A stretch of DNA of 34,834 nt from a virus (lineage: Duplodnaviria > Heunggongvirae > Uroviricota > Caudoviricetes): the IMG/VR virus record IMGVR_UViG_2541047861_000007, positions 1-34,834 of that record. One strand, given 5' to 3'. Below are positions 1-34,834 of the stretch, one piece after another. Position 1 is the stretch's first letter. Each line of letters opens with the position of its first letter. Both the position numbers and the translations under genes were made by a program. The notes under the pieces are model-generated. The model did no database searches. It was not told where the DNA came from and was given only the letters and a program-made list of their open reading frames with translations.

Positions 1-1293
<1,293 letters not shown>

Positions 1294-2429: not shown

Positions 2430-3344
2430 ATGAAAACCGATTTGTTTATTTCATATGCTTGGACTTCAGATTCCCATAGAGAATGGGTTCGGTTGCTTGC
2501 AAGCCATCTCGACCTTATTGGTTATACGGTTAAAATCGATGAAGCTGTTAGATATGGTTCAAGCTTATCTGGTTTCATGCGAGAGGTTATCGAAACCGAT
2601 CATGTGTTGTTGATTGTCGATGATAATTATGTCGAACGCGCTAATAACAATCCGAATTCTGGAGTTGGTATTGAAAACAAATGGATAAGTGACGCTTTTA
2701 TGGAAAAGCCCTCGACATGGTTGTCAGTTATCTTTGTTCGAAATCCTGAGCGAAAACTACCTAAGTGGCTTGAGGGGCATAATCCTAAAGGGTTTGATTT
2801 TAATTCTAATTCTGATAGAAATGAATTTCCCGGCTCTATGCAGATCGATGCTATTTGGCGTTGGATTGAAGGGCTGCCGGCAGATAAAAAGTATTCAATC
2901 CCATTACCGGTTTATCGTCAACGTATTGCACGGCTTGAACATATTGATATTCTCCGAGCCCCTTCGCGTTATGCAAATCCAGCACTCAAGGGATGTGAGA
3001 TTTTTCGTTTCAGGGATTATTCCCACTATACGGTTGGTAACAGTGAGTACCAATTTAAAATAGTATTTAGTGCATGCTCTCATGATAGTGTTTACATCTA
3101 TATAGATTGTGAACTTAAAGCTATAGGATTGATCACATCTGTAGAATTCAATCCACAAACTGTCGAGTCTTTTTTAACTCCAGGTCGTTCTGTTAATGCG
3201 ACTGTCGGGCAAAAGGTAGTCCTACTAAACTCCTATGGGGTTCTGTGCATTGTAACAATTGATAATGTGCAACATGAGATTAATACCGCAGAGTATGTTC
3301 ATCCACATGTGGAGTTCTCATACGAAATACTTGAAAAAAACTAG
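2430..3344 (+). CDS. TIR-domain protein with an uncharacterised C-terminal domain (candidate defence/abortive-infection cargo)
   Basis: 304-aa ORF. The N-terminal 130 aa (DLFISYAWTSDSHREWVRLLASHLDLIGYTVKIDEAV..GSSLSGFMREVIETDHVLLIVDDNYVERANN) follow the classic TIR pattern (FISY, W..L, G..V..D, I.LLS..Y..S). The C-terminal 170 aa have no motif I recognise. Strongly AT-rich, opposite strand to flanking D and ogr. Confidence 0.65.
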   Translation: MKTDLFISYAWTSDSHREWVRLLASHLDLIGYTVKIDEAVRYGSSLSGFMREVIETDHVLLIVDDNYVERANNNPNSGVGIENKWISDAFMEKPSTWLSVIFVRNPERKLPKWLEGHNPKGFDFNSNSDRNEFPGSMQIDAIWRWIEGLPADKKYSIPLPVYRQRIARLEHIDILRAPSRYANPALKGCEIFRFRDYSHYTVGNSEYQFKIVFSACSHDSVYIYIDCELKAIGLITSVEFNPQTVESFLTPGRSVNATVGQKVVLLNSYGVLCIVTIDNVQHEINTAEYVHPHVEFSYEILEKN

Positions 3345-3490: not shown

Positions 3491-4591
3491 TCACTCTGTT
3501 TCTGCTATCCATTCCGGGATTTTTGCCTCAAGCTCAAGCTGTGTGGTAAAGCCGCTGTTATCAATGGTGTGCTCGGCTTTTGCAATAATCCAGTCCTGAT
3601 TATCAATCTCGCTTTTAAATCCTGTTACCGTGCCATGCATTTCGGGGTAGAGTTCTGCACGTCCACGTGCCAGCGTGATGGAGAATGATGCGGCTCCGCG
3701 TTGTAGCTGCTGCCACTTTGCCGCCGCTGCACGTCTTGCTGCCTGCTCGTTCTGATAAGTCTTGCGTAACACAAACACGTTGCCTTCCGCACCTTCCATA
3801 TAGTCACCTTCACGGCTGCTGCTTTTCTCCTTTTTCGGTTTGCGGCGTTTCACGCTGACTTTTTTCTTTTTCCCGTAATTAAGATCAAGCCAGTAAGCGC
3901 GTCCCCCCGTATACGCTTCGCGGTCAGCAATGCGGAACTGATGGCGATCGCCACTGCTGCGCGTGATGGCGAACGAGGGCAACGGCTGGCCCTGTGCGTT
4001 CACGCCACCGCCTGGCATGATGAATAACAGATTACCGCTTTTTACCGTAGTGATTGCGCCCAACATTTCCGCCATGCGCGTAAGGAAGGACATGTCGCTT
4101 TCTTCGGTCTGGTCGGCGTGGTCGATTTCGATATCCATCAGCATTTCGCTGATTTGCGGTTTCAGACCGTACCGATGAGCGATGGCGGATACCACGCGCT
4201 CAACGGTCACATCATGCCAGGATACTTCACGTTTAACGTTAAATTCATCCCGAAAATCTGCGCTTCTGGCTGAAACAGTCAGCCTGTCCGGCGGTCCTTC
4301 GTGTGCGATTTCATCAACAATGTAAGACCCTTTTTCTGTCAGCGGTTCGCCTTTCCAGCCAATGAGAACCGTCAGGCGCGCGCCCCGTGGCGGTAGCTGC
4401 AACTGACCATCCGCATCATCCAGCGTGATGGTGAGCTGGTCTGCCTCAAATCCCCGGTTGTCGGTCAGCGACAGGCTCATCAGGCGCTCTGCCACGCCGG
4501 ACAGCGTTTTACCCTCCGCGAGAATATCAAAATCCGGCATTTTCACGGGGTCTGTGCTCTGACTGAGCAATTGCATGGTGGTGTCGGTCAT
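3491..4591 (-). CDS. D: Tail protein D (late control gene D family, baseplate hub)
   Basis: Translation has the length and character of phage gpD-family proteins. Start placed at the ATG preceded by AGGGAGG (MTDTTMQLL) rather than the upstream end of the open frame. Confidence 0.8.
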   Translation of the reverse strand: MTDTTMQLLSQSTDPVKMPDFDILAEGKTLSGVAERLMSLSLTDNRGFEADQLTITLDDADGQLQLPPRGARLTVLIGWKGEPLTEKGSYIVDEIAHEGPPDRLTVSARSADFRDEFNVKREVSWHDVTVERVVSAIAHRYGLKPQISEMLMDIEIDHADQTEESDMSFLTRMAEMLGAITTVKSGNLLFIMPGGGVNAQGQPLPSFAITRSSGDRHQFRIADREAYTGGRAYWLDLNYGKKKKVSVKRRKPKKEKSSSREGDYMEGAEGNVFVLRKTYQNEQAARRAAAAKWQQLQRGAASFSITLARGRAELYPEMHGTVTGFKSEIDNQDWIIAKAEHTIDNSGFTTQLELEAKIPEWIAETE

Positions 4592-4748
4592 CTGCTCCCT
4601 CCCTGTGCGGCATGGTCGCATGTGTGTGCGGGCGGGGTTACTGCTTTTTGTTGTCGCCGGGCGGCAAGAACGGCGCAGGGGTGAGATTACGCGCGTGGTG
4701 GGTGATGATTGTTGCCGAATCATTTAACGGATACAAGGGGCTGAAGCT

Positions 4749-10340: not shown

Positions 10341-10372
10341 CAAAACCGCTAATGGTCAGATTAGCGGTTTTT
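10341..10372. terminator. Bidirectional rho-independent terminator between convergent U and invertase genes
   Basis: aaaaccgctaatggtcagattagcggtttttt: 9-bp stem with an A-tract before and T-tract after. Confidence 0.65.
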
Positions 10373-10962
10373 TATTTTCCCTGAGTCTGCCCGGTTGTTT
10401 CTTCAGCCTGTATATCGCCTACAGGGTGATAACGATAAATCGTCGATATACCGATGTCGTAAATGATCGCCAGTTGTTTCCTGTCATGGCCGTTTTTAAT
10501 CAGCCTTTCTATTTGCTCATGTTGTTCTTTTGTCAACTTCGGGCGACGTCCGCCAATGCGTCCCTGTGCTCGTGCTGCTGCCAGCCCGGCCAGTGTACGC
10601 TCTACAATTAATTCACGTTCCATTTCTGCTAAAGCTCCCATGACGTGAAAAAAGAAACGCCCCATGGGTGTTGATGTGTCAATGCTGTCCGTCAGGCTAC
10701 GGAAATTAACACCTTTTTCCCGCAATTCCTCAATAAGCGTGATCAGGTGTTTCTTACTCCTGCCCAGCCTGTCCAGCTTCCAGACAACCAGCGTATCTCC
10801 TTCTGATAGCGTTCTGAGCAGTTTTTTCAATCCCGGTCTGGCTGATTTCGTTCCGCTGATTTTATCTTCAAAAATCAGTTCACATCCTGCGCACTCCAGC
10901 GCGTTACGCTGCAATTCCGTGTTCTGGTCATTTGTTGATACGCGAACATAACCAATAAGCAT
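10372..10962 (-). CDS. Serine-recombinase DNA invertase (Gin/Pin/Cin/Hin family)
   Basis: MLIGYVRVSTNDQNTELQRNAL..DTLVVWKLDRLGRS..FRSLTDSIDTSTPMGRFFFHVMGALAEMERELI..GRIGGRRPKLT is near-identical in motif content to Mu Gin, including the catalytic Ser in YVRVST and a C-terminal HTH. Confidence 0.93.
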   Translation of the reverse strand: MLIGYVRVSTNDQNTELQRNALECAGCELIFEDKISGTKSARPGLKKLLRTLSEGDTLVVWKLDRLGRSKKHLITLIEELREKGVNFRSLTDSIDTSTPMGRFFFHVMGALAEMERELIVERTLAGLAAARAQGRIGGRRPKLTKEQHEQIERLIKNGHDRKQLAIIYDIGISTIYRYHPVGDIQAEETTGQTQGK

Positions 10963-10989
10963 GAGCATCCCCCTGAATAAAAACCGGAG

Positions 10990-21433: not shown

Positions 21434-21456
21434 AAAAAATTTGCTCCTTTGTCTTA

Positions 21457-22293
21457 TCAGAAGTCAGCCAGCTGGTCGGAGGCTGCACCTGTTGCGGTGA
21501 ACCGGTTCTGCGGATCGCCGTCCTGCGTGCGCAGTTTTTCCTTCAGTGCTGCCAGCTCTGTGGTCAGTGACGTAATTTTCTGGCGGTCCTGCTGATGGCG
21601 GGTTTCCAGCACATTAAAACGGTCGATAATGTCGGCCTGTGACGTTGCGACGCCTTCCACCGCTTCCTGAATACGGGAAAAACTGGCGTCATCCGCTTTG
21701 CGGCCACGGCCAATAATCCCCATTACGCGGTTAAACCACTGGGTGCCTTCTTCCTGGCGTTGTTCTGCCATTTCGATGATTTCAGACTCGATGGCTTCGG
21801 AGATAAGCGGCGCTTCACCCTGGATACTGTTGAACGTCATCACCGCCTGACGTTGCTGTGCCGTGAATTTCAGGCGCTCAGTGCCCAGGCTTGCCGGGGT
21901 GTCGGTCATCGCCAGCCCGACCAGATAGGCGCGCCCGTTAACGGAGAACTGCGGGTGCAGTTCGATACTGGAATAGATTTTCTTGCCGTCCGCGACAAGC
22001 TGCTTCATGCGCTCGGTCGGTTCGATTTCTGCATACAGCGCAGTACGTCCGGCCAGCGGACCTTCCGTAATGTCTTCCGTACTCAGTGCGGTGACATCGC
22101 CCATTGCGGAAAATTCGCTTGACGGGCATGGCGAGAGATAGTGCTCAACGTTCACGCGGGCAGCGTAAACATCCGGGTCGAAGTTCTCGGCGGCTTCACG
22201 CAGATGCACCGGACTGATTTCACGGCCATCAACAGTTGATCCGGAGACAGCCACGCGAAACTTTTTGCGGGATGTCTTTTTTTCATTAGCCAT
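21457..22293 (-). CDS. O: Capsid scaffolding protein O
   Basis: Start at MANEKKTSRKKFRVAVSGSTVDGREI (P2 gpO begins MAKKVSKFFRIGVEGDTCDGRVI); YLVGLAMTDTPASLGTE motif; divergent from P. Confidence 0.88.
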   Translation of the reverse strand: MANEKKTSRKKFRVAVSGSTVDGREISPVHLREAAENFDPDVYAARVNVEHYLSPCPSSEFSAMGDVTALSTEDITEGPLAGRTALYAEIEPTERMKQLVADGKKIYSSIELHPQFSVNGRAYLVGLAMTDTPASLGTERLKFTAQQRQAVMTFNSIQGEAPLISEAIESEIIEMAEQRQEEGTQWFNRVMGIIGRGRKADDASFSRIQEAVEGVATSQADIIDRFNVLETRHQQDRQKITSLTTELAALKEKLRTQDGDPQNRFTATGAASDQLADF

Positions 22294-22447
22294 AGTTTTT
22301 GCCCCTCTGACTGGTTCTTCAGTCATGATGGCAAAGCGTAACAGGCTGATACAAAGGGCTTTTGTTGTAAGAAAACGGCCAGAACAGGGGGTTAAGGAGA
22401 ACAGTTTCGCGCGCGGGTAATCTTCCTGTAATTACTCAGGGGGAGCA

Positions 22448-24199
22448 ATGATTCAGGACGCTTTTGTGCGCCAGCGTGCGCGGCAACTTTACTGGCAGGG
22501 TTATCCGCCCGCAGAAATATCACGTCTGATGGGAATAAACCCGAACACGATTTATGCGTGGAAAAAACGTGACCAGTGGGATGAAACGCCACCCGTGCAG
22601 CGTGTCACGCAGTCCATCGATGCGCGCCTCATCCAGCTTACTGAAAAACAGAATAAAACAGGCGGTGACTTTAAGGAAATAGACCTGCTGACCCGGCAGC
22701 TTAAAAAGCTGCATGATGGCCAGCCGGATGCGACGGCCGCAGGAAAGAAAGGCCGGGCGAAAAAACTCAAAAATCATTTCACGCCGGAACAGATTGCCGC
22801 ACTGCGGGAAAAAATCATCAGCAGGCTGGAGTGGCATCAGCGGGGCTGGTTTGACTCCCTGACCCTTTGCAGGGAAGCCGGGATACGTAACAGGATGATC
22901 CTGAAATCCCGACAGATTGGGGCGACCTGGTATTTTGCACAGGAAGCACTGCTGATGGCGCTGCGTGACGATGTGGCGCAACCTTACCAGCGTAACCAGA
23001 TTTTTTTGTCTGCGTCGCGTCGTCAGGCGTTCCAGTTTAAAAGCATTATTCAGAAGGCCGCGGCTGAAGTTGATGTGGAGCTGAAAGGGGGCGATAAAAT
23101 CATCCTCTCCAACGGCGCAGAGCTGCATTTTCTCGGCACTTCTGCTGCGTCGGCACAGTCCTATACGGGCAATTTTTATTTTGATGAATTTTTCTGGGTC
23201 AGTCGCTTTGCTGAACTGCGCAAGGTGGCTGGCGCTATGGCAACCCTCAGCGGACTGCGGCGCACCTACTTCTCCACGCCATCCACCGAAACGCACGAGG
23301 CATACGCCTACTGGAACGGCGACCGCTGGAATGAGAAAAAGGCCTCGCATAAACGCCAGCGTTTTTCTGTGGACTGGAAAACGCTGCATAACGGGCTTAT
23401 CTGCCCTGACCGGACGTGGCGGCAAATTGTCACGCTGGAAGATGTGGTTAATCACGGCTGGAAACACACTGATATCGACGAAATTCGTGATGAAAACACC
23501 GAAGACGAGTTCCTCAATCTCTATATGTGTGAGTTTGTCCGCGAAGGGGAATCGGCATTTAACCTGAATATCCTGATTGGCTGCGGTGTTGACGGATACG
23601 ACGACTGGAAAGACTGGAAACCTTTTGCTCCCCGCCCGATGGGGAATCGTCCGGTATGGATTGGGTATGACGCAAACGGCAGTAGTGGCAACGGCGACAG
23701 CGGCGCTGTGTCCGTGGTGGTTCCTCCGGCTGTTCCTGGTGGCCGTTTTCGAACGGTGGAGACGCGACGCGTTCAGGGGCTGGAGTTTGAAGAACAGGCC
23801 AGAGTCATTGAAGAGTTCACGTATCGCTACAACGTGGAACACATCGGCATTGATGTGACGGGCGGGAACGGGGAGGCTGTTTATCAGATAGTGAAACGGT
23901 TTTTCCCTGCTGCTATTCCGTACACCTTCACGCTGTCATCAAAACGGTCGCTGGTACTGAAAATGCTGCAAATAATGCGTGCCGGGCGGTGGGAATACGA
24001 TCGCGCCGAACGCGAGCTGGTCGCGGCCTTTAACGCCGTGCGTAAGGTGAAAACACCGGGCGGCTTTATCACTTACGAAACGGACCGCGCGAGGGGGATC
24101 AGCCACGGCGACCTTGCGTGGGCAACCATGCTTGCTGTCATTAACGAACCGATTGGCGGCGAAGGAGAAAACGAGCGTTTCACGGTTATGGAGTTCTGA
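22448..24199 (+). CDS. P: Terminase large (ATPase) subunit P
   Basis: 583 aa, divergent from O as in P2, with a terminase-type ATPase N-terminal half and nuclease C-terminal half. Confidence 0.93.
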   Translation: MIQDAFVRQRARQLYWQGYPPAEISRLMGINPNTIYAWKKRDQWDETPPVQRVTQSIDARLIQLTEKQNKTGGDFKEIDLLTRQLKKLHDGQPDATAAGKKGRAKKLKNHFTPEQIAALREKIISRLEWHQRGWFDSLTLCREAGIRNRMILKSRQIGATWYFAQEALLMALRDDVAQPYQRNQIFLSASRRQAFQFKSIIQKAAAEVDVELKGGDKIILSNGAELHFLGTSAASAQSYTGNFYFDEFFWVSRFAELRKVAGAMATLSGLRRTYFSTPSTETHEAYAYWNGDRWNEKKASHKRQRFSVDWKTLHNGLICPDRTWRQIVTLEDVVNHGWKHTDIDEIRDENTEDEFLNLYMCEFVREGESAFNLNILIGCGVDGYDDWKDWKPFAPRPMGNRPVWIGYDANGSSGNGDSGAVSVVVPPAVPGGRFRTVETRRVQGLEFEEQARVIEEFTYRYNVEHIGIDVTGGNGEAVYQIVKRFFPAAIPYTFTLSSKRSLVLKMLQIMRAGRWEYDRAERELVAAFNAVRKVKTPGGFITYETDRARGISHGDLAWATMLAVINEPIGGEGENERFTVMEF

Positions 24200-25245
24200 T
24201 GAGCAGAAAAAACAAAAAAGTGCGCATGAGTTCACGCATTGATCTCGCTGATGCGCTCAGGAAAGAATCATCGCTCAGTGCATTCACATTTGATGGTCCT
24301 TATCGCCTGACCGGGCATGACCTGCTGGACAATATGTACTGTGCTGATAACGGGCGGTGGTATGAAACCCCGGTGGACTGGTACGGTCTGGCAAGAGCAG
24401 CCCGGCAAACGTCCTGGCATCAGTCTGCGCTTTACTTTAAGCGCAATGTATTACTCGGTTGCTACATCCCGCACCCGCTGCTTTCCCGGCAGGATTTCTC
24501 GGCGCTGGCGCTGGACTGGTTTGTGTTCGGTAATGCATTCCTTGAGCTTCGAAGCAATATGCTCGGCGAACCGCTTAAATTACGGCACGCCCTGGCGAAA
24601 TACATGCGACGCGGAAGCGATCTTGAATCATGGTGGTATGTGCAGGATGGTAAGGACGCGTTTCAGTTTCGCCCTGGCAAAGTATGCCACCTGATGAATC
24701 CGGATATTAACCAGGAAATCTACGGCATGCCGGAATATCTTGGCGCATTACTCTCGGCCAGCCTTTCTCATTCGGCGGACATGTTCAGAAAACTGTACTA
24801 CGACAACGGATCCCACGCCGGGTGCATCATCTACATCGGTGCAGCGCAGGTAAACCGCGAAAGCATGGACTCCCTGAAAGAAACGTTACAGGGTGCGCGT
24901 GGTGGTGGTGCATTTAAAAACGTGCTCATTCATGCGCCCAACGGGGGCAAAGAGGGGGTGCAAATTTTGCCGTTCCAGCAGATCACCGCAAAGGATGAGT
25001 TCATGAATGTTAAGGCGGCATCCCGTGATGATGTACTGGCTGCGCACCGCGTTCCGCCGCAACTGATGGGGGCGATGCCGGGCGAAAAAAGTGCGTTTGG
25101 TGATGTGGAGAAGGCCGCGCGGGTTTATGCAATTAACGAGCTGATGCCCGTTATGGAGGCTATGAAGCACATCAATGACTGGCTTGGCGAAGAGGTGATC
25201 CGCTTTAACCCTTACGCACTGTTAGACACCCAGCCCACATCCTGA
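24199..25245 (+). CDS. Q: Portal protein Q
   Basis: 348 aa directly after P with an ATGA overlap; size and position of P2 gpQ. Confidence 0.93.
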   Translation: MSRKNKKVRMSSRIDLADALRKESSLSAFTFDGPYRLTGHDLLDNMYCADNGRWYETPVDWYGLARAARQTSWHQSALYFKRNVLLGCYIPHPLLSRQDFSALALDWFVFGNAFLELRSNMLGEPLKLRHALAKYMRRGSDLESWWYVQDGKDAFQFRPGKVCHLMNPDINQEIYGMPEYLGALLSASLSHSADMFRKLYYDNGSHAGCIIYIGAAQVNRESMDSLKETLQGARGGGAFKNVLIHAPNGGKEGVQILPFQQITAKDEFMNVKAASRDDVLAAHRVPPQLMGAMPGEKSAFGDVEKAARVYAINELMPVMEAMKHINDWLGEEVIRFNPYALLDTQPTS

Positions 25246-25269
25246 CGCGCTTCGCTTGTCTGCTGCTTC

Positions 25270-25298
25270 GTCGGGGCATAAAAAATTTATGCCCCGAC
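25270..25298. repeat. Perfect 12-bp palindrome hairpin just after the Q stop
   Basis: tcggggcataaa-aaaa-tttatgccccga; no downstream U-tract, so it may be a protein-binding or RNA-processing element rather than an intrinsic terminator. Confidence 0.6.
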
Positions 25299-25389
25299 TC
25301 TCCAGCTCCTGTATCAATCAGATAATTTCACGACGTCTTCCAGCTTATCGCCATCATCGACGGTCAGGCTCTTACGCAATCCCACCGCG

Positions 25390-25425
25390 TTGACTGCATG
25401 TTCTCGCCGCCTCAGTGCGATTTTG
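25390..25425. other. Candidate cos (cohesive-end) region
   Basis: Reverse complement reads GAGGCGGCGAGAACATGCA, which resembles the P2 cohesive end GGCGAGGCGGGGAAAGCAC as I recall it, and lies about 170 bp beyond the Q stop, where P2 places cos. Confidence 0.35.
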
Positions 25426-25573
25426 ACGGCCTTATCTGTCACCCCATCAAATCAAAAGCCCTCACGTCTTTTTCACGCTCAGCGTGAGAAATACAGCCAT
25501 TCTGTTGTGTCGCTGCGACATCGTTCAGGGGATGCTATTTACCCCCTGAAACGCGGGCTGTTCCCCCGTCACC

Positions 25574-25599
25574 TGCGCGCAGAAAAAGCGCGTTTTTTT
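25574..25599 (+). terminator. Rho-independent terminator candidate
   Basis: cgcgc-agaaaaa-gcgcg followed by T7. Confidence 0.45.
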
Positions 25600-25670
25600 G
25601 TGCACGCACGGATCCTTGACGGATCCAGCCGCCACGCGGGCCGGAAGGGCAAAAAGTCGTTCAAAAAAAT

Positions 25671-25700
25671 TGTGCAAATTTGTGCACTATTGTGCAGTGT
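25671..25700. repeat. Three direct TGTGCA hexamers phased at exactly 10 bp
   Basis: tgtgcaaatt tgtgcactat tgtgcagtgt, preceded by an A7 tract. Confidence 0.6.
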
Positions 25701-26098
25701 GTATCGTGCTGTTTTCTACGTAAAGAACGGATGGTAAATTTGCTCGTAGCAGAGAAGATTTTAATGATCGCAAGATATGAAAAAAGATTCATAACCCTAT
25801 TTGATGTGCATCCTGTTTCAGGACTTGATATGTGACTGTATTACTGGGGCCACATCGTTGGGAGTTTTAAAGGACTAAGGTAATTATTATGGCATTCAAT
25901 TAAAAACAATACTATATACTATTTGATAACTATTTTGCAGCATGAAGAACCTTTAATTAATTATATGATTTTTTGTGATTGCAAATTTTTTAGATAAATA
26001 GCAAGATATCATAAATCATTATTATTCGTTTGCTTTTTTAATGAGAGTGTTTGTTTATAACGCTAATTTAATTTCAATAAGGAAAAAATGGAGTTACT

Positions 26099-27463
26099 AT
26101 GAATATAACTACTAATCGGAATGGTTTTGAGAATGGTTTTGATATTACATCTGACATATTTAATCGTAAGACATTATATGATCAAATGATACGGCTTATT
26201 ATTAATGCTCCTGACTCAAATTTGGTTTTTGCGTTAGATGATATATGGGGTAGCGGTAAAACATCATTTGTTAAGATGTTAAAATCAGAATTAGAATTAA
26301 CTAATAGTGAATATATAGATGTTGTTTATTTCGATGCATTTGAAAATGATTATCAATCAGATCCATTTATTTCAATATCATCTGAGCTATATAATTTACT
26401 AAAACACAGAGGAGTAGAGGCCGAAGATGTAGCTGATCGCATTATTAAAACTGGTAAGAAAATAGGTGCAAAAATATTAATCGGAGGTGCAAAGGTAGCT
26501 ATTACAACCCTGACAGCAGGTGTTGTGAATGGTTCTGCTCTTGATGCGGCAGGAAAAACAGTTAGCGATTCCATTAATAGTGAGTTAGAGTCTTTTGTTG
26601 AAGAGAAAATAAAATCCATGGAGCAGGAAAAAAACTCAATTGCTGACTTTAAAAAAGCTTTAGAAGAAATATATACAAATACAAAGAGAAAAACCTTGAT
26701 TATTATTGATGAACTTGATCGAGCCCGCCCAGATTATTCTCTAGAGCTATTGGAAAAAATTAAGCATCTTTTTTCTGTGAAAGGTATGGTTTTCTTATTG
26801 GTAATGAATCGAGAGCAATTTGAAAAGGGAATTGCATATAAATACGGTGATATCAATACTGGTCTGTACTTGAATAAATTTATTCATTATTGGTTTTCTT
26901 TGCCCAAAATAAATATGTATGACTCTATGGTGTTACAAGCATCTAACAAAACAACGATTACAACGTATATTAAAAAAACTCTACAACAGAATCACTCTCT
27001 AGGTATTAATACAGATGGTGCTTTTGTAAGAGTCTTATCATGCTTGATTGAAACCAATAATTGCTCGCTGCGAGAAGTTGAACGATGTATTTCAACTATG
27101 CTTGTAGTGGATAATCATACGTGTATAGCGAATAATGATGATAATTATTATATGATTGCATTAGCATTGGTTTGTTTCTTGAAAGTAACTTCTCCAGATA
27201 TGTTAAATCGACTACTTAAGAAGGAAATGTCTTCTGAAGAGATATTAGAATTACTTAATATAAAATCTGATTATTTTTCATCAAAGATGGAAATTAAATT
27301 GCTTAAAGAACTACTGGATTATTATTACATCGATAAAGAAACATTAAAACTATTACGTAATGAAAAGGGAAGTTATGTTCAGCGTATAGAAGGTGATTTT
27401 GCGTTTGAATATAACCATATCTTTAATATTTCCACATCAATAGCTAATATGACTATAAAATAA
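26099..27463 (+). CDS. KAP-family P-loop NTPase (candidate phage-exclusion/abortive-infection protein)
   Basis: 454 aa; Walker A in ALDDIWGSGKTSFVKM, Walker B in LIIIDELDRARPDYSLELLEKIKHLF, the KAP NTPase signature (the family that includes F-plasmid PifA). Very AT-rich with rare-codon usage; GGAG Shine-Dalgarno 7 nt upstream. Confidence 0.8.
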   Translation: MNITTNRNGFENGFDITSDIFNRKTLYDQMIRLIINAPDSNLVFALDDIWGSGKTSFVKMLKSELELTNSEYIDVVYFDAFENDYQSDPFISISSELYNLLKHRGVEAEDVADRIIKTGKKIGAKILIGGAKVAITTLTAGVVNGSALDAAGKTVSDSINSELESFVEEKIKSMEQEKNSIADFKKALEEIYTNTKRKTLIIIDELDRARPDYSLELLEKIKHLFSVKGMVFLLVMNREQFEKGIAYKYGDINTGLYLNKFIHYWFSLPKINMYDSMVLQASNKTTITTYIKKTLQQNHSLGINTDGAFVRVLSCLIETNNCSLREVERCISTMLVVDNHTCIANNDDNYYMIALALVCFLKVTSPDMLNRLLKKEMSSEEILELLNIKSDYFSSKMEIKLLKELLDYYYIDKETLKLLRNEKGSYVQRIEGDFAFEYNHIFNISTSIANMTIK

Positions 27464-27683
27464 GAACCGTGAGTCATATTTAATCACTAAGATAATTGAA
27501 GCCTTAAATGATTGGACTTAGGGCTTTACTTATTTTTATTATTTGAAGTTGTTTAAGCTCACTATGTTACATAGTTTGTGGTCCATACCAATTTGATTTT
27601 ATTGGCATTTCATAGATACACATGTTCTGTGTGAATATCCTTCTTTTATTTATCATTTGATTTTCAAACTCCGTTTCTTTTGA

Positions 27684-30464
27684 TTATTTGTTCCCACTCT
27701 TTACTCCTCTTCGCAGTAGGTCAGCTTTGTGGCAGGCGCGTTCGGTTGTTTCACAGATTCTTTGTGTGTGCTCTGTGTCGTGAATGGCGCGCAGCATGTC
27801 AGAAAGCACAGTAACGGGGGTTTTCATGGTGTTCTGGTCCTGCTGAAGTGTGGATGCCAGGCGTGCGGCGGCTTCGGGGTCTGATGCCCCCAGCTGTTCC
27901 AGATAGCTGGCGACCGGGTTATGGCGGATCTCCGTGCTGCTTACGCCGTGATTACGGCTCAGGCGCTGCCAGAGCTGCGTGATTCGGCTGTCCGGGCGGG
28001 TATCCGGTTTGCGTACAATTTCAAATCCCTGCGGTGCAATGATGCTGCCGTCAACGTACAGGCTGCCGCCCCGTAACAGGTGCTGCATCTGCTGTTCACC
28101 GATATGCAGGCCGAGAGATTCGGCAGATTCCCGCCATTCTTTAGCGAGTAATTCGTGGTTATCAGGCAAAGGCCGCTGCTGTTTGCGGCTCTGTGTCCAG
28201 CTCTGCATTTCATCACTGCTGTTTTTTGCCTGTTTGTCACGCAGCGAACGCATCAGCGCCCGGCGTTCGTACCGTTTCAGTGAGCGCATCCATTCATCCA
28301 CATCAACGCCGTCAGGAAGCTGCGGCCACAGTGCTGGCCGTTCTTCCGGCTGTTCTGTCCCGTTGTTGTCTGTTTCCTGTACACGGGGACAGTTATTGCC
28401 ACGAGTCCAAGGGGCGGCAGGGCCGCCCTGAAGGTCAAAACCATTTTCGCGGGTGCTGTCTTCCGCTTCCGGTTTACGTCTTACCAGCTTCCAGTTATCT
28501 GGGTGCGTGCACACACGGGAGGATTCCCCGATGAGTGGTGACCAGATCCCGTAAATCTGTACGCTCTGTTCGCCGTAATCGTTCAGCTCATCTGCGAGGT
28601 CGTAGGCGGTGCGAATCAGGTAGTCCTTGCGTGGAACAAGTACGCCACCCTGTTTTTCAATGTAGGAGGCAAAACACCCGGCATCAGCGGCAGCGAGTAC
28701 CGCATCCATTGCGTCATCCTTCAGCCGTTGCGGGCCTTCCGGGTTGCGTGCCATCTGGCTGGCAAGGCGGCGCAGTTCACGCCACACCTGACGGGAGGGG
28801 ATGCCAAAGAACTGGAACTGGCGGACCCGGTGAAGGCGCGCCCAGCCGATGGCGCGCTCCACGCTCTCGGCCATTGATTTTCCGGTTTCGTGGTCAACGC
28901 GTGGTTTGCCCGTTTTCGGGTCGATGCCATCCACGGCGCGGCTGTCCAGGTTTTTTCCGATGTAGGTCGCGATATAGCTGGTTGGTGTGCCTTTTAAGCC
29001 GTCGACATACTCCACCTTAAAGCGCGGAGTAATATCATTGCCCAGCTCGTGGCGGTCTTCCTGAATGGCAATATCGCGGGTGATGGCCACGATGCTGTCG
29101 ATTTCTTCCGGATGAGCAAAGACCATCATATGCCAGTGCACGGTGCCGTCATGGTGAGGCTCCACCGTGCGGATGCCATACCAGCGCAGACCGTCGCGGT
29201 TCAGTTTTTTGCGGACCGCCGCAAAAAACGTGTTAACCAGGTAATCGCTGGAGTCGCGCATGGTGGCCCCGTTCCATTTGGGATTCGGATGACCGTTCTC
29301 TGTTGTGGCGTGGTATTTTGATGGGCAGGTGACAGTCAGAAACACCGCTTTGTCGCCACGGGCCTCGGCCAGAAGTTCCAGCCCCTTCATGGTGGCCATC
29401 ATTTCTGCCTTACGGTGAACCGGGTTACTTACTCCCGCGTAATACACTGTCTCGAGATCAATCGTGAACCCGTCTTCGTTTTCCAGCATGAAACTTTTCA
29501 GGAAATCGCGTGTTTTCTCGCGCTGTGCGCGAAACTCGCTTAACGCGTCCTGGCTCAGATAGGGCGATGTTTTTCTGGAAACCAGACAGGCGGCGCGGAG
29601 TTGTTCTTCTCTCCACTCGCAACGTAACAGCCACAGTTTGCGTTTCCACCATTCAGCACAGGTCAGGCGAAGGATTGCGCCTGGCAGCAGCTCCGTGTCC
29701 GGTTCGTTCCTCCGATCTCTATCTGTTGTCAGTGCGTCATAATGTGGAGGCATGGCGTGCAGGTGTAACGCCATGCGGGCCAGCATCTGATACGCCTTCA
29801 GCGTTACATCCATGGTCAGCTCACCATCGGTCGCGCCAAAGCCATCGCAGAGTTTTTCGAAGGTGCTGCTGAACATCGCCGCCGTCATGGTGGCCAGCGT
29901 CTGTATCTGGTGTTTGTTGAGCTGCGGCAGGTAAAGCAAATCGTCCAGGCGTTCGCGTCCGGCAAGGGAGCGATACCCCTGTGTCAGCCAGCGGCTGTCG
30001 GTGCGCTCCAGACGTTCGAATATTTTGCGCAGGTTTCCGCGCGCGTAGCGTTCGGCCTGCCAGCTCTTTTTGCCTTTCTGACGATCGGCTTCCTGCTTCT
30101 TGCGCAGGAACGAGAGGTGGCGGCTCAGGGGTTCTCGCAGATAAACGGGAAGCACCTTCAGTGTGGCAAAGGCACGGGCCACCGGGTCTTGTTCTGTTGC
30201 CCGACGCTTACTGATGATGCTTTGTGCCAGCTTTTCACGCTGTCCGGCTTCCTCAAGGGATGCCATGAGTTTTTTACCCATGGCGGATTGTGCGAAAAAG
30301 GCTTCCTCTTTCGCTTCCTGTTCTTCCTGGGCCTTTTTGTCTGCCTCAAGGTAGTAACGGATGGCGCGTTGCAGGTCGGTTTCAGTTTCCTGCCTGCGCT
30401 CCGTAAATCTGGCCGGATCAATGGCTGGCCGTGGTTCATTCCAGCTCCATGCAAACTCACTCAT
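27684..30464 (-). CDS. A: Replication initiation protein A (rolling-circle endonuclease, P2 gpA family)
   Basis: Large protein with a HUH-type motif region (DGTVHWHMMVF) and a tyrosine-containing segment (TSYIATYIGKN); start placed at MSEFAWSW where the ATG overlaps the upstream gene stop (ATGA). Confidence 0.92.
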   Translation of the reverse strand: MSEFAWSWNEPRPAIDPARFTERRQETETDLQRAIRYYLEADKKAQEEQEAKEEAFFAQSAMGKKLMASLEEAGQREKLAQSIISKRRATEQDPVARAFATLKVLPVYLREPLSRHLSFLRKKQEADRQKGKKSWQAERYARGNLRKIFERLERTDSRWLTQGYRSLAGRERLDDLLYLPQLNKHQIQTLATMTAAMFSSTFEKLCDGFGATDGELTMDVTLKAYQMLARMALHLHAMPPHYDALTTDRDRRNEPDTELLPGAILRLTCAEWWKRKLWLLRCEWREEQLRAACLVSRKTSPYLSQDALSEFRAQREKTRDFLKSFMLENEDGFTIDLETVYYAGVSNPVHRKAEMMATMKGLELLAEARGDKAVFLTVTCPSKYHATTENGHPNPKWNGATMRDSSDYLVNTFFAAVRKKLNRDGLRWYGIRTVEPHHDGTVHWHMMVFAHPEEIDSIVAITRDIAIQEDRHELGNDITPRFKVEYVDGLKGTPTSYIATYIGKNLDSRAVDGIDPKTGKPRVDHETGKSMAESVERAIGWARLHRVRQFQFFGIPSRQVWRELRRLASQMARNPEGPQRLKDDAMDAVLAAADAGCFASYIEKQGGVLVPRKDYLIRTAYDLADELNDYGEQSVQIYGIWSPLIGESSRVCTHPDNWKLVRRKPEAEDSTRENGFDLQGGPAAPWTRGNNCPRVQETDNNGTEQPEERPALWPQLPDGVDVDEWMRSLKRYERRALMRSLRDKQAKNSSDEMQSWTQSRKQQRPLPDNHELLAKEWRESAESLGLHIGEQQMQHLLRGGSLYVDGSIIAPQGFEIVRKPDTRPDSRITQLWQRLSRNHGVSSTEIRHNPVASYLEQLGASDPEAAARLASTLQQDQNTMKTPVTVLSDMLRAIHDTEHTQRICETTERACHKADLLRRGVKSGNK

Positions 30465-30850
30465 GGCTGGTATCCCGTCACGCGCTGCCACTCCTGCGAG
30501 AAGAGGGCGGAAAGGCGGTTAAACTCAGCGGTGTATTCACTCAGCGAGGCACACCCGCCAGCAGTGCGATGCGCCAGCATTGCCGCAAATACGGAGGCCG
30601 GGGAGTCGTAATACGCCAGCAGTGATTCGCCGTGCGGTGTCAGGCAGTGCAACGCCAGTCCGTGTGGTGTGAAGTCCACGCGGTAGCAGTCGTCTACTGT
30701 GAAATAAAGGGTATCCACATTCTCCGGTTTTGTGGTGCGTGCTCTGTTGTCACGACCACGAATGTAGAGATCAAATAATCCCCGAAGAATGGGAGCCAGA
30801 CGGGTGTCCTGTGTGCGCACCCATCTTGTGAAGTCATGAGCGTCAATCAT
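30461..30850 (-). CDS. Hypothetical early protein at the position of P2 gene B, translationally coupled to A
   Basis: 129-aa ORF in the early operon; function not recognisable from sequence. Confidence 0.5.
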   Translation of the reverse strand: MIDAHDFTRWVRTQDTRLAPILRGLFDLYIRGRDNRARTTKPENVDTLYFTVDDCYRVDFTPHGLALHCLTPHGESLLAYYDSPASVFAAMLAHRTAGGCASLSEYTAEFNRLSALFSQEWQRVTGYQP

Positions 30851-30958
30851 GCTGCAATTCTCTCTACTAAGGATGTGCGAAGGCTTCCTGCCAAAAAACT
30901 CAGAAGCGGTCGGTTACAGAAATTGGCGTTCTACGAGTAGTTATTGCTGGCTTGAGGT

Positions 30959-31177
30959 TCATTTCTGTTTAATGCCGTGCATGCTGTAGAAGAAATCAAA
31001 AGTGTTATCTATGCGTATCATGAGCTCACGCTGCATCGCTTCTGGTGTTTCTGGTTCACCTGGTGAGCCAACTCCCGCGAAGAAATCACCGATCTCGCTT
31101 TGAATAAGTGCCTTTAGCGTTGCTGAGGAATTCAGGTGTGTGCGGTGATGTCTGCGAGTGATTCTTCTCCTGCTCAT
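30959..31177 (-). CDS. Hypothetical early protein (72 aa, basic N-terminus)
   Basis: ORF in early-operon orientation; stop overlaps the next gene's start region. Confidence 0.45.
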   Translation of the reverse strand: MSRRRITRRHHRTHLNSSATLKALIQSEIGDFFAGVGSPGEPETPEAMQRELMIRIDNTFDFFYSMHGIKQK

Positions 31178-31377
31178 TTGCGTGGATCCTGTACCTGTCG
31201 GATAAGATTCACCCGCGCCACATTAGTGGCGCAGAAGTAAGTACCGTCAATGAGATAGATGTGGTGTGCATCCTTTTCTGAGCGGTGTTTGTCGATTGTG
31301 GTAATCAGGCGTTCGTCGACTTCGTATTCACGTCCTCTGGAAGTGAAACGAACGACAGGAAAATGCTTAATTGCCAT
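31174..31377 (-). CDS. Hypothetical early protein (67 aa)
   Basis: ORF in early-operon orientation. Confidence 0.45.
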   Translation of the reverse strand: MAIKHFPVVRFTSRGREYEVDERLITTIDKHRSEKDAHHIYLIDGTYFCATNVARVNLIRQVQDPRK

Positions 31378-31465
31378 TACGCCTCCTGGGCGTGTGCGAA
31401 TACCTCCGCGAATGCGGATTGTTTTTACATTTTCTTATTTAACCTAGGGTTTTTATTTGCGCTGT

Positions 31466-31578
31466 TATTCGCCAGTGAAAATGCGTTCAATCTTTTTTAC
31501 TGAATGAATAATTTGCATAATCCCAATGGCGCAGACCACCGAAATAATCAGGACAAGCCATGAGATAAATATACTCAT
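31466..31578 (-). CDS. Small hydrophobic peptide (37 aa, single predicted transmembrane helix)
   Basis: MSIFISWLVLIISVVCAIGIMQIIHSVKKIERIFTGE; its ATG overlaps the TGA of the upstream ORF (ATGA). Not on the ORF track because it is short. Confidence 0.35.
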
Positions 31579-31817
31579 GCAATATTCCCCAGCTTATACG
31601 GTTCAATATGTTCCCCGCATTCTGCGGCACAGATCAGCTCGGAAAGTTCGTTAAGTGCATCCAGATCATCAGCGTAAAAAGCCACGTCATACAGACTCCG
31701 GATTGCCCTGGTCAATGAGTCACGGGCTGCACGTTCAGCATGAGCACCTGATGCACTTAAGCGAAAATAAAAACGCTCAAGTGCTTTGTTAATGAGAGTT
31801 TTATATTCTTTGCCCAT
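31575..31817 (-). CDS. Hypothetical early protein (80 aa)
   Basis: ORF in early-operon orientation. Confidence 0.5.
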   Translation of the reverse strand: MGKEYKTLINKALERFYFRLSASGAHAERAARDSLTRAIRSLYDVAFYADDLDALNELSELICAAECGEHIEPYKLGNIA

Positions 31818-31828
31818 CGCAACGCCCT

Positions 31829-32107
31829 TTAATCTGCTTTCTGAATTTCAGCTTCTGAATCCATACAAATAATTTCGATATAGGGTTCATCGCCATTAAT
31901 CTTACGTGCTTTTTCAGCTTCGCTAATGATTCCGTGTACAGTCTGGTACGGAAGTTCTACGGTCAGGCGCGTGCCGTTCAGATAAACGTAAGTAGCTGCA
32001 TTTTTTTCTGATGGGACAACTCCATCAATAGCTGATGCGCGCAATAACAGTTCACCGCGAAAATCAATAAAACGGATAAATACACCTTGTGCATGCTCTT
32101 TGGTCAT
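31829..32107 (-). CDS. Hypothetical early protein (about 92 aa from MTKEHAQG)
   Basis: ORF in early-operon orientation; start chosen downstream of the preceding gene's stop. Confidence 0.45.
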   Translation of the reverse strand: MTKEHAQGVFIRFIDFRGELLLRASAIDGVVPSEKNAATYVYLNGTRLTVELPYQTVHGIISEAEKARKINGDEPYIEIICMDSEAEIQKAD

Positions 32108-32117
32108 AACGCACCTG

Positions 32118-32603
32118 TTATAAATCAGTCTGTTTAATAAAACTTTGCCCGCGAAGCAGACGATCAACCGTGCGAAGTGCTTCGTACAATGTGAAATCCT
32201 GTCCAAACTGATTGTCACCGTTGCTCAGAGCAAAAATGCGGTTTCCGGTAAATGGGTTGCGTTGGCATCTGTGAACCACGATTCCAGCTTTTTCAATCAG
32301 CCAGGTGTGTTCGCCAATTTGTTTTACTGTATGGCCATCTGGCGTTGCGTGCGTCTCGCTCAGGCTGTAGCGAGAGTTGCTACGTGATGCACTGGTAGTG
32401 AAGCGGTTAGCGTGGCGTTCTGCGCCGTTGCGGAAGCGCTGTTGTGAAGAATTGCGCTGTTGCTTCATGTCAAAAACTCCGTACCTGTTTACTTCCCCGG
32501 CATAACGCCCATTTTCAAAATAATTGCGGCGAAATCCCATGTTATTGGGTTCGCTGTTTCGCTGTTGCTTATTCATTTTTTGTGCCTCTACCCGATAAGC
32601 CAA
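32118..32603 (-). CDS. Hypothetical early protein, Gln/Arg/Asn-rich N-terminus
   Basis: 161-aa ORF with an alternative start at MNKQQRNS; low-complexity basic N-terminal half. Confidence 0.5.
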   Translation of the reverse strand: MAYRVEAQKMNKQQRNSEPNNMGFRRNYFENGRYAGEVNRYGVFDMKQQRNSSQQRFRNGAERHANRFTTSASRSNSRYSLSETHATPDGHTVKQIGEHTWLIEKAGIVVHRCQRNPFTGNRIFALSNGDNQFGQDFTLYEALRTVDRLLRGQSFIKQTDL

Positions 32604-33326: not shown

Positions 33327-33386
33327 TTGTTATCCTCTTGCGTTGGTGCGCTTGTCGCGCCTTGTGATGGTTTGTTTTGGCTTGTA

Positions 33387-33441
33387 AAGATAATCAAACG
33401 GTTATCTTTGTGCGAGAGGTTAATACTCAAATGGTTATCTT
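33387..33441. promoter_or_regulatory. Immunity-switch operator/promoter region between the Cox-like and C genes
   Basis: Two direct GGTTATCTT repeats about 33 bp apart (near 33400 and 33433); the first is part of a palindrome AAGATAA-N8-TTATCTT. P2 C binds direct repeats flanking the early promoter. Confidence 0.55.
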
Positions 33442-33772
33442 GTCAATAGACTATGCAAAAAAGTTACGTCAGATACGTAAGGCGGAAGGGTTAACACAAA
33501 AGCAGTTTGCGGATATTACTGGGTTGTCTTTGGCAACCATAAGGAATTACGAATCGGGGCAAAAGAACGCTAGAGCAAAAATCGTTGAGGCGGTTCTGCA
33601 AGTCGATCGCTTTGAAAAATACATGCTGTGGCTAATAAAAGATAAGACGCTACCTGTCGCCGGGCAGATTGCTCCGGCTCTCTCTCTTGATGGATCTATT
33701 CAGTCGGAGGGCGATCAGGTTTCAATCGGTATTACCCAAAAATCACCCCGATCAGGCCGCAATGTTGGCTGA
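33431..33772 (+). CDS. C: Immunity repressor C (P2 C-type)
   Basis: HTH (LTQKQFADITGLSLATIRNYESGQ) and C-terminal AGQIAPALSLDG matching P2 C (SGQIAPALAHFG); ATG at 33431 preceded by GAGAGG. The ORF track extends upstream to a TTG at 33377. Confidence 0.85.
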   Translation: MVILSIDYAKKLRQIRKAEGLTQKQFADITGLSLATIRNYESGQKNARAKIVEAVLQVDRFEKYMLWLIKDKTLPVAGQIAPALSLDGSIQSEGDQVSIGITQKSPRSGRNVG

Positions 33773-33841
33773 CTCTACACATTGAGCGAATTACATATCG
33801 CAAGGAGTGTTTAGTTAATTTATCCGTTGGAGGGGCTAATC

Positions 33842-34834
33842 ATGTCGATTAAGCAACTCAAAGACGGACGTTATCAGGTCGATGTCAGACCGCAGGGGGC
33901 GGAAGGAAAGCGGATTCGAAAAATCTTTGCCCTGAAATCAAAGGCTCAGGAGTTTGAGAAGTATGTGTTACAGAACTTTCATGACAAGCCATGGCAGGCT
34001 AAGCCAGCTGATCAGCGGCGATTATCAGAGCTGCTTGATGCGTGGTGGATGCTTGATGGGCGTAATCAGGCTTACGGGGATAGCTACAGGGTTAGGCTAG
34101 GGAAGGTTGTTCGTGAAATGGGAGATCCTCGCGCCAGTCAGATGACGCGAAAATTTATGCTTGAATATCGGTCAGAGAAATTACAGGCCGGATTAATGCC
34201 GTCCAGTATTAATCGTGACTTATGCGTACTGTCTACCATGTTCACGGTGCTGATTGAAGCTGAGGTCTTTCACAACGCGAACCCTGTACGCGGTATACGA
34301 AAACTGAAAGTTCAGAACACAGAGATGGCCTTTCTTTCTGATGATGAGATTGAACGGCTTCTTGAGCGACTGGAGGGTGATGCGCGTCGTGTTGCCATTC
34401 TGTGTCTTTCTACTGGTGCCCGATGGAGTGAAGCATCGGAACTACGTGGAGAGCATATCGTTGGCAACCGGGTGACGTTCTTTAACACCAAAAACGGAAA
34501 ATCCCGTTCGGTTCCTGTGGCGGATTCGGTCGTGCCTCTGATTAAAACCCGTCGAACGGGGTTATTGTATCAGGTTGATTATCTGAAGTTCCGGGAGATT
34601 CTTCAGGAGGTGAAACCGGATTTGCCGAAGGGGCAGGCTACGCATGTCATGCGTCATACGTTTGCCACACACTTTATGATGAATGGCGGAAATATTGTTA
34701 CGTTGCAACGAATCCTGGGGCACGCAACGATTCAGCAAACAATGACGTACGCTCATTTTTCGCCGGACTTTTTACAGGACGCGATCAACTTTAATCCGCT
34801 GGCTGAAAGTGTCCATAAACTGTCCATCGATTAG
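33842..34834 (+). CDS. int: Tyrosine integrase (P2 Int type)
   Basis: Start at MSIKQLKDGRYQVDVRP (P2 Int begins MAIKKLDDGRYEVDIRP); catalytic motifs ARWSEASELR, HVMRHTFATH, LGHATIQQTMTYAHF; downstream of C and reading toward the window edge. Confidence 0.93.
   Translation: MSIKQLKDGRYQVDVRPQGAEGKRIRKIFALKSKAQEFEKYVLQNFHDKPWQAKPADQRRLSELLDAWWMLDGRNQAYGDSYRVRLGKVVREMGDPRASQMTRKFMLEYRSEKLQAGLMPSSINRDLCVLSTMFTVLIEAEVFHNANPVRGIRKLKVQNTEMAFLSDDEIERLLERLEGDARRVAILCLSTGARWSEASELRGEHIVGNRVTFFNTKNGKSRSVPVADSVVPLIKTRRTGLLYQVDYLKFREILQEVKPDLPKGQATHVMRHTFATHFMMNGGNIVTLQRILGHATIQQTMTYAHFSPDFLQDAINFNPLAESVHKLSID

Follow-up and report, generated by a model that had tools for sequence, protein, structure and literature searches.

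A compact KAP-family P-loop NTPase as candidate anti-phage cargo of the cos-proximal hotspot in a P2-like prophage

The window, that is, the whole stretch of DNA analysed (34,834 nucleotides; IMG/VR virus record IMGVR_UViG_2541047861_000007), holds a P2-like prophage, with the host serS gene (1..1293) at one end and a phage integrase gene ending at 34834 at the other. Our subject is the gene that lies between its portal gene (gpQ) and its replication endonuclease gene A, which encodes a KAP-family P-loop NTPase and is a candidate for anti-phage defence. An earlier note on this DNA had described a single 454-aa gene here, on the strand opposite to gene A and in a very AT-rich island at 25740-27683. 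The open reading frame (ORF) is present, starts with ATG, carries GGAG five bases upstream, and is convergent with gene A (Table 1). The GC content is 0.29–0.33 over 26001-27500 versus 0.53–0.60 in the flanks, and that of the third codon positions (GC3) is 0.23 in the KAP gene versus 0.60–0.63 in the portal, terminase, and A genes. Similarity of the cos-proximal stretch to P2- and P88-like phages ends at approximately 25697-25700 and restarts at gene A, which delimits a cargo island of approximately 25700-27683, close to the bounds proposed earlier. No further conserved ORF was found within this island.

Profile comparisons bore out the assignment to the KAP family that the note had made from the motifs. 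The protein matches Pfam KAP_NTPase (PF07693) with 132.9 bits (E 1.8e-38; gathering cut-off, 20 bits), residues 27-337 aligning to profile positions 5-289 of 293; for a 1,365-nt ORF at 30% GC, such a match is far beyond chance. AAA_22 is a secondary Pfam match. The PADLOC defence models were compared at E<=1, and only PDC-S20, PifA, and QatA matched. Four PDC-S20 models were hit, namely PDLC04959 (E 1.8e-75, 253 bits; residues 17-417 on positions 17-404 of 464), PDLC04956 (E 2.3e-60), and two more at approximately 1e-25; the models of this family span 446–464 positions, and its organisation is single-gene, as in the window. The matches to PifA (E 6.8e-17; residues 39-275 on positions 38-260 of a 720-position profile) and QatA (E 5e-13) cover the NTPase core only, and the NCBIfam QatA model gave 51 bits (E 9e-14) relative to a cut-off of 600. 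Because the PDC-S20 match is near full-length and the other two are confined to the NTPase core, the protein is a member of Pfam KAP_NTPase and PADLOC PDC-S20, and not an orthologue of PifA or QatA. Nor does it belong to the RdrA, Reve, or Tmn families. It also matches phrog_8614 of PHROGs (E 3.7e-102), a group of unknown function, and carries the RefSeq name "KAP family P-loop NTPase fold protein" (WP_021546060.1) in avian-pathogenic Escherichia coli (APEC) strain E12053. A search of the PDB with the family profile returned insignificant sequence matches only.

The motifs quoted in the earlier note are both in place: LIIIDELDRARPDYSLELLEKIKHLF occupies residues 200-225, and Walker A (GxxGKT/S) and Walker B (hhhDExDR) are intact. 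Invariance was scored over 28 family members of 33–81% identity; beyond the catalytic positions listed in Table 1, G13, F14, D19, F21, and R23 (in an N-terminal strap before helix alpha-0), W50, and P211 are invariant. The AlphaFold2 model (predicted local distance difference test score, pLDDT, 79.6; predicted template modelling score, pTM, 0.74) combines an alpha/beta core resembling that of ORC/Cdc6 with a lid and a C-terminal lobe (340-454) made of helices only. Its fold neighbours are ORC/Cdc6, DnaA, TnsC, and the RFC clamp loaders, and the closest solved structure is the defence ATPase RdrA; within the viral fold library BFVD, the neighbours were generic AAA+ and clamp-loader proteins only. 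In topology, the helical hairpin insert is placed where many KAP proteins have their transmembrane insert and where RdrA has its "crown" (insertion 1) (PMC9994260). The frequency of the majority residue is 0.82 in the Walker B/sensor-1 core, 0.67 in the Walker A core, 0.63 in the lid, 0.56 in the hairpin tip, 0.40 in the C-terminal lobe, and 0.34 in the linker 271-305, the last two being the least conserved regions. The protein is acidic (pI 5.4).

The founding paper of the family, by Aravind et al. in 2004, reportedly names in its title transmembrane helices inserted within the P-loop domain. In the window protein an insert of 145 residues is in place and holds no transmembrane helix. The Kyte-Doolittle mean over 19 residues reaches 1.49 in its insert, compared with mostly 0.8–1.5 in the inserts of approximately 110 homologues, and the maximum of the whole protein, 1.53 at residues 351-369, lies within a C-terminal-lobe helix that the model predicts with confidence. 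The hydropathy of the window protein and these homologues led us to reject a transmembrane hairpin hidden in the insert, in agreement with the note, which had seen no obvious transmembrane insertion. The lack of such a helix does not bar KAP membership, since PifA is also reported to be without them. At the tip of the hairpin lies a conserved motif, with examples such as ILIGGAKVAITTLTAGVVN, VLKRGIPAFLKGITAGVVD, SIAKRSIPVGVKLATLGIL, and VPGVIRVATAGILDVNPLL among the homologues, which is still recognisable at 25–30% overall identity in Enterobacterales, Alphaproteobacteria, Bacteroidales, Cyanobacteria, and Nitrospira (loci L002-L134). In the approximately 110 homologues this motif is almost always the most hydrophobic stretch of the insert, with a basic residue conserved at its middle. 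Taken together, the low hydropathy, the conserved lysine in mid-motif, and the conservation itself indicate that the tip is a functional element rather than a transmembrane helix.

Table 1. Features of the KAP gene and protein, the cargo island, and the surrounding prophage (window coordinates).
Feature	Position	Strand	Remarks
KAP-family P-loop NTPase gene, 454 aa (PADLOC candidate family PDC-S20)	26099..27463	+	ORF, Pfam, PADLOC, PHROGs, RefSeq
Walker A, G51-S-G-K54-T55 (WGSGKTSF, residues 50-57)	26249..26263	+	G51, G53, K54 invariant
Helical hairpin insert, residues 106-195	26414..26683	+	AlphaFold2 helices 106-139 and 152-195, between strand 73-79 and Walker B strand 198-204
Conserved tip motif GGAKVAITTLTAGVVNG, residues 129-145	26483..26533	+	Family consensus [KR]-x-[AG]-T-x-G-[VIL]-[VIL]-[DN]
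Walker B and KAP signature, L200-IIIDELDR-208	26696..26722	+	D204, E205, D207, R208 invariant
Putative sensor-1 Asn237	26807..26809	+	Invariant; end of strand 230-236; role by analogy with AAA+ proteins and RdrA D253
SLREVER, R325 and R329 (putative sensor-2/arginine finger)	27071..27085	+	Invariant; lid helix 324-335; role inferred
Variable all-alpha C-terminal lobe, residues 340-454	27116..27460	+	pLDDT 75–96; candidate sensor by analogy with the RdrA C-terminal lobe
AT-rich leader, 399 bp	25700..26098	+	Ribosome-binding site GGAG, 26090-26093
Terminator-like hairpin, then U-rich tail	27489..27545	+	26–80 nt past the stop codon; RNA fold -20.2 kcal/mol, z = -2.2 versus shuffles
AT-rich cargo island, variable cassette of the gpQ-gpA hotspot	25700..27683		GC 0.29–0.40
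cos-proximal non-coding region, conserved	25246..25699 (454 bp)		94–97% identical to P88-like and P2-like coliphages
Large terminase subunit	22448..24199	+	Left of the hotspot
Portal gene (gpQ)	24199..25245	+	Core gene on the left of the hotspot; named "phage portal protein" by RefSeq in the APEC E12053 copy (99.99% identical); synteny marker
Replication endonuclease gene A	27684..30491	-	Core gene on the right of the hotspot, transcribed convergently to the KAP gene; RefSeq start corresponds to 30464
TIR_2/SEFIR protein, 304 aa, second cargo gene	2430..3344	+	PADLOC bSEFIR E 1.9e-44, residues 1-235 on a 412-position profile

The interval that holds the KAP gene, which the note had likened to the old/tin position of P2, is indeed a published one: the cos-proximal gpA-gpQ interval is the main defence hotspot of P2-like phages, home of old and tin in P2 itself, with 18,150 occurrences and 1,650 gene arrangements (PMC9122126; PMC13586616). 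The KAP gene lies between portal/cos and gene A, and the cargo at this place varies among related phages. Positions 19400-33259 of the window are 99.99% (99.986%) identical to E. coli O2:K1:H4 APEC E12053 (NZ_CP126928.1), an avian-pathogenic strain. The flanks of the island are matched in 1,408 of 5,426 complete E. coli genomes, and the KAP cargo was detected at the DNA level in only one of them; ParM-like, XF1762, Doc/Phd, or Ea22-like genes stand between the same flanks in others. In E. coli genomes H18-H36, the commonest alternative occupant of the slot is a protein with a ParM domain, next to one or two hypothetical proteins and in some cases an XF1762-family protein, a Doc/Phd pair, or a "plasmid partitioning/stability" protein.

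Identical copies of the protein were found on 53 contigs of E. coli and Salmonella, and its cluster at 90% identity has 108 members. A word-indexed search returned 275 relatives, of which the closer ones are nearly all 445–460 aa long and come from Escherichia, Klebsiella, Enterobacter, Serratia, Yersinia, Pantoea, Pectobacterium, and Vibrio. When 1.84 billion representatives (50% identity) were searched exhaustively with a profile, 21,168 matched, and 4,460 of these reached E<=1e-30. The top 150 are nearly all 425–470 aa long and mostly match over most of the profile length, indicating that the compact architecture is native and not a truncation.

We then fetched 136 loci and searched them for the terminase, portal, capsid, and gene A proteins of the window. 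In approximately 35 of them, a homologue of 35–100% identity stands directly after the portal gene, on the same strand and convergent with gene A, so the search for relatives in the same interval that the note had suggested gave many P2-like prophages; these loci include IMG/VR contigs L082-L108, L114, and L116 as well as Proteus and Providencia genomes. The backbones of the KAP-carrying loci are very divergent, with portals 31–100% identical, and KAP identity is decoupled from backbone identity: portal and KAP proteins are approximately 32% and 44–46% identical in L095-L104, and 70% and 46% identical in L097. At the near end of the range, the cassette of L082-L087 is 98–100% identical to that of the window and their cos-side flank 95–96%. 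L082, L084, and L085 are 97–98.5% identical to the window up to 30143, where similarity is lost until approximately 31171 (31391 in L085). This pattern of identities, with its break inside gene A, is consistent with exchange of the cassette by recombination, and the alignments suggest a breakpoint in the 5' part of gene A at approximately 30143, in which case the exchanged segment would comprise most of gene A plus the cargo.

Other defence-type genes accompany the homologues at several loci. In two Klebsiella/Enterobacter-type P2-like prophages, a second cargo lies beside the KAP homologue: an AbiU/AIPR protein of 562 aa in L088 (9545..11233, minus strand), and an RmrA-like HTH-M78 peptidase of 381 aa with an unannotated 183-aa partner, together RosmerTA-like, in L086 (9585..11238, minus strand). 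A Pectobacterium homologue (L007) is 2.3 kb from the defence gene Ppl and beside an IS110 element, the homologue of L138 shares its island with a relaxase, HxsD/radical-SAM genes, DUF4145, and DUF3800, and further homologues are carried on plasmids. The family is also cargo in a second, unrelated phage type: lambda-like siphophage prophages (L109-L122) carry a homologue near their end, together with a tail-tip J protein and lysozyme. Among these, L109, L113, and L117 (IMG/VR contigs of 24–36 kb) form a subgroup of 35–40% identity, in which the gene lies 1–3 kb from the contig end and the downstream block is conserved, with three short ORFs, a GIY-YIG SegE-like gene, lysozyme, and a J-type tail-tip protein; the short ORFs of L113 (approximately 97, 103, and 190 aa) have no Pfam match. 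A partner gene or small ORF in the window's island was rejected, as its non-coding flanks are unconserved in homologues of approximately 70% identity and the neighbours vary by locus. The note had likewise seen no partner gene, and since no neighbour is conserved across these contexts, the KAP gene appears to act alone.

We compared the protein with the characterised KAP defences, among which it is the smallest, with no transmembrane helix, no partner, and no large C-terminal extension. PifA, the F-plasmid protein that excludes T7, shares the KAP NTPase core and, like the window protein, is encoded by a single gene on a mobile element and reportedly lacks transmembrane helices; it is described as causing membrane depolarisation and nucleotide leakage. 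The homology is not full-length, however: the approximately 460 C-terminal residues of PifA are absent from the window protein, an orthologous relationship was rejected because the alignment is limited to the NTPase core, and neither the PifA triggers (T7 gp1.2 and gp10) nor its membrane-leakage phenotype can be transferred. QatA of QatABCD also shares the core, but is approximately 600–650 aa long with a different C-terminal domain and belongs to an operon with qatB, qatC, and qatD, whereas the window island holds a single gene. RdrA of RADAR (PDB 8fnt, 8fnu, 8hr8) has a fold like that of the window protein at 11–13% sequence identity, and no RdrA model was among the PADLOC matches. It forms a heptameric ring, in which the insertion after beta2/beta3 builds a "crown" that makes nearly all contacts to RdrB, and its variable C-terminal alpha lobe is the proposed phage sensor (PMC9994260). 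RdrA is approximately 800 aa long, has a four-helix bundle as its insertion, and acts together with the deaminase RdrB; the window protein has a hairpin instead, and no partner. Membership in a QatA or RdrA system was rejected, with scores far below the cut-off and the partners absent.

Stand-alone KAP proteins with validated defence activity include Reve and EF_KAP. Reve, described in a 2026 study (Moura de Sousa et al.) from P4 hotspots, gives 10^2- to 10^6-fold protection against Drexlerviridae; it resembles the window protein in being a single-gene KAP NTPase borne by a phage satellite or other mobile element, with the same Pfam pair (PF07693 and PF13401) and a C-terminal region of unknown function. 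We translated the Reve protein (586 aa) from the synthesized DNA in the preprint supplement. BLASTP gave E 0.089 over the P-loop only, a hidden Markov model built from the family alignment gave no hit on Reve, and the spacing from Walker A to Walker B is approximately 95 residues in Reve versus 145 in the window protein. Identity of the gene with Reve was rejected for want of meaningful similarity, so the validation of Reve cannot be transferred by homology. EF_KAP and its relatives from Enterococcus and gut metagenomes are likewise single-gene KAP cargo of mobile elements, with two predicted transmembrane helices and a 322-aa C-terminal region, whereas the window protein has none of the former and a C-terminal lobe of 115 aa. 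Protection by EF_KAP depends on both the Walker B motif and the C-terminal region (PMC13552941). Tmn, a transmembrane NTPase of the distinct YobI family, is a sensor of RIIB that turns over more ATP and exports Mg2+; no Tmn model was among the PADLOC matches, and the window protein lacks a transmembrane helix. As for the occupants of the same cos/gpQ-gpA slot in P2, old and tin, which serve in phage exclusion, no homology to the window protein appeared among the PADLOC models, and Old is an ATPase-TOPRIM nuclease whereas the window protein has no nuclease domain. We take P2 old to be transcribed towards gene A, the orientation that the window KAP gene also has.

Taken together, the position, recurrence, and family of the gene bear out the observations of the earlier note and support its interpretation as a well-founded prediction. 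The gene is predicted with reasonable confidence to confer phage resistance, and the protein is probably a stand-alone KAP-clade anti-phage defence protein carried as swappable cargo of the cos-proximal gpQ-gpA hotspot. In this role it would protect the P2-like lysogen from other phages. The analysis shows the membership of the family, the position and its recurrence, the pattern of conservation, the predicted fold, and the lack of both a transmembrane helix and a partner gene, whereas defence activity, oligomeric state, the parts played by sensor and output modules, and the fate of the cell are inferred. How the protein might act is drawn from its anatomy and from relatives. Its subunits would form a ring and, on the model of RdrA and QatA, probably a heptameric one. 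The fast-evolving alpha-helical lobe at the C terminus, perhaps with the linker 271-305, would recognise a phage-derived cue, and ATP binding and hydrolysis (K54, D204/E205, N237, R325/R329) would drive a conformational switch. The output would be delivered through a crown of the helical hairpins (residues 106-195), whose deeply conserved tip motif would contact the inner membrane, or a cellular target that is itself conserved, and so arrest the infected cell or phage replication. Given that the tip is conserved across phyla and that no partner gene accompanies it, such a target would have to be universal, for example, the membrane, a conserved host machine, or a nucleic acid. By its likeness to RdrA and QatA, this division into sensor, ring, and crown is offered tentatively, as something short of an even chance, and any particular cell outcome, abortive or direct, is suggested with low confidence. 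The note had favoured abortive infection or phage exclusion; abortive infection is one possible outcome and not an established one, because the likeness to PifA is limited to the NTPase domain and EF_KAP is reported to be non-abortive.

Several points weigh against this reading or parts of it. The original hotspot study found 3 of 8 further P2 hotspot systems positive and "more than a third" of its cloned systems overall (PMC9122126), so position in the hotspot alone is no proof. PDC-S20 is a computational candidate family in PADLOC; our literature search found no paper that mentions it, no experimental test of the family, and no validated system tied to it. The DefensePredictor paper does not mention KAP. 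The ring and the sensor and output roles are borrowed from RdrA and QatA, at 11–13% identity and from partner-dependent systems, the hairpin tip (127-163) is modelled at pLDDT <50, and the protein has no recognisable effector domain, which makes the output step speculative. In the DNA itself, a promoter scan found fewer sites than in shuffled controls and no sigma-70 consensus upstream of the KAP ORF.

The main mechanistic rival keeps the defence role and changes the mode of action. A KAP ring would bind nucleic acid, or a replication or packaging protein of the phage, and block replication or packaging directly, without cell killing or membrane contact, and the lysine of the tip would lie in a loop contacting nucleic acid or substrate. 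We consider such direct interference a minority possibility, albeit one with several supports. QatA binds single- and double-stranded DNA and forms 7-8-mers (PMC13279940), EF_KAP protects equally at multiplicities of infection of 1 and 10 and was judged non-abortive (PMC13552941), one RdrA structure is labelled an "RNA-loading state", the fold neighbours ORC/Cdc6, TnsC, and the clamp loaders all handle DNA, and the basic residue conserved in the middle of the tip argues against membrane insertion. Set against these are the acidity of the protein, the absence from it of any recognisable DNA-binding or winged-helix domain, and its all-helical C-terminal lobe. A bolder variant, which we put forward as conjecture and think rather unlikely, is that the compact family of approximately 450 residues, which has 4,460 clusters (50% identity) in many phyla, represents an "effector-less" NTPase immunity with the hairpin crown as its sole output device; the tip motif would have replaced an ancestral transmembrane anchor and would bind a universal target or insert transiently into the membrane. 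Were this true, it would be a defence mechanism not yet described, and would explain how PifA-like proteins without transmembrane helices act.

Readings without defence together claim only a small part of the probability. The gene might be a moron or selfish cargo, for example, a toxic or addiction-type NTPase, or might alter host physiology or virulence as a lysogenic-conversion factor; the low score of further P2 systems in the hotspot study (PMC9122126), the ParM-like and Doc/Phd toxin-antitoxin genes that occupy the slot elsewhere, and the near-identical copy in an avian-pathogenic strain all lean this way. We nevertheless think it improbable, as the gene matches a phage-defence candidate family of PADLOC, the family recurs beside AbiU, the RosmerTA-like pair, and Ppl, several other KAP NTPases are validated defences, and no antitoxin-like partner is conserved. 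The resemblance of the fold to ORC/Cdc6, DnaA, TnsC, and RFC, along with the adjacency of cos and the replication endonuclease gene, could also point to an accessory replication, partition, or packaging ATPase of the prophage. Such an ATPase would hardly be missing from almost all P2-like prophages (the gene is in 1 of the 5,426 E. coli genomes), and its foreign composition (GC3 0.23 versus 0.6), the decoupling of its identity from that of the backbone, the occurrence of the family in lambda-like prophages, plasmids, and chromosomal islands, and the closeness of the defence ATPase RdrA among solved structures make this very unlikely. Least credible is an inactive remnant, whether a gene in decay or a truncated piece of some longer KAP protein, PifA for example. 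The protein is much shorter than PifA (profile length, 720), QatA (approximately 600–650 aa), or RdrA (approximately 800 aa), but the lengths of the best 150 representatives and their matches over most of the profile argue strongly against truncation, its catalytic residues are all intact and invariant, and the exact protein recurs on the 53 contigs.

If the gene is confirmed as a defence, the PADLOC candidate PDC-S20 would become a validated single-gene system, and the family is very large, with thousands of clusters from Enterobacterales prophages to Alphaproteobacteria, Bacteroidales, and Cyanobacteria. Since it has no recognisable effector domain, the window protein could serve as a minimal model of how KAP proteins (PifA, QatA, RdrA, Reve, EF_KAP) pass from sensing to output, and the tip motif and the variable C-terminal lobe are two precise targets for mutagenesis. 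That the P2 gpQ-gpA slot again flags a defence candidate confirms an already accepted idea rather than surprises; the concept of the hotspot, single-gene defences built on KAP proteins, and the entry of PDC-S20 in the catalogue were already known.

The DNA around the gene provides some further detail. The leader is unconserved among homologues of approximately 70% identity. The terminator-like hairpin downstream of the gene was missed by a consensus terminator scan, probably because its loop region exceeds the length that the scan allows, and an Rfam search of the whole window gave zero matches. On the portal side, the canonical 19-nt cos sequence of P2 is absent from the window at up to 3 mismatches, and the position of cos is therefore deduced from homology to P88-like genomes. 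The start of the linear Xuanwuvirus P88_4B11 genome maps to approximately 25651, and a sub-stretch at approximately 25542-25605 is still recognisable in distant P2-like loci; this homology makes the conserved stretch immediately left of the island, around 25540-25651, the probable site of cos. A perfect 12-bp inverted repeat, TCGGGGCATAAA / TTTATGCCCCGA, is located at 25271..25297, 26 nt past the portal stop codon. It was not flagged by the consensus terminator scan, and might belong to the packaging region or act as a terminator in both directions.

The note had also mentioned a TIR gene as cargo at another variable position of the prophage, and a bSEFIR-like gene was found there. It lies in an AT-rich stretch (2001-3500) between serS and the tail gene D (3491..4723, minus strand), at the opposite end to the integrase, so that, with the KAP gene, the prophage has defence-type cargo genes at two separate places. 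Beyond 33259 the window departs from the APEC E12053 prophage (locus L001, from 13860): RefSeq annotates a truncated cox and an IS3 transposase in the APEC copy, and the window continues with a 131-aa ORF (33377..33772) and an intact integrase ORF (33827..34834), indicating that the window copy comes from a different strain or is an uninterrupted copy. Among the tail genes and near short ORFs, a serine resolvase/invertase gene (10372..10968, minus strand; Resolvase and HTH_7 domains, E 4e-51) looks like a tail-fibre inversion switch of the Gin/Cin type.

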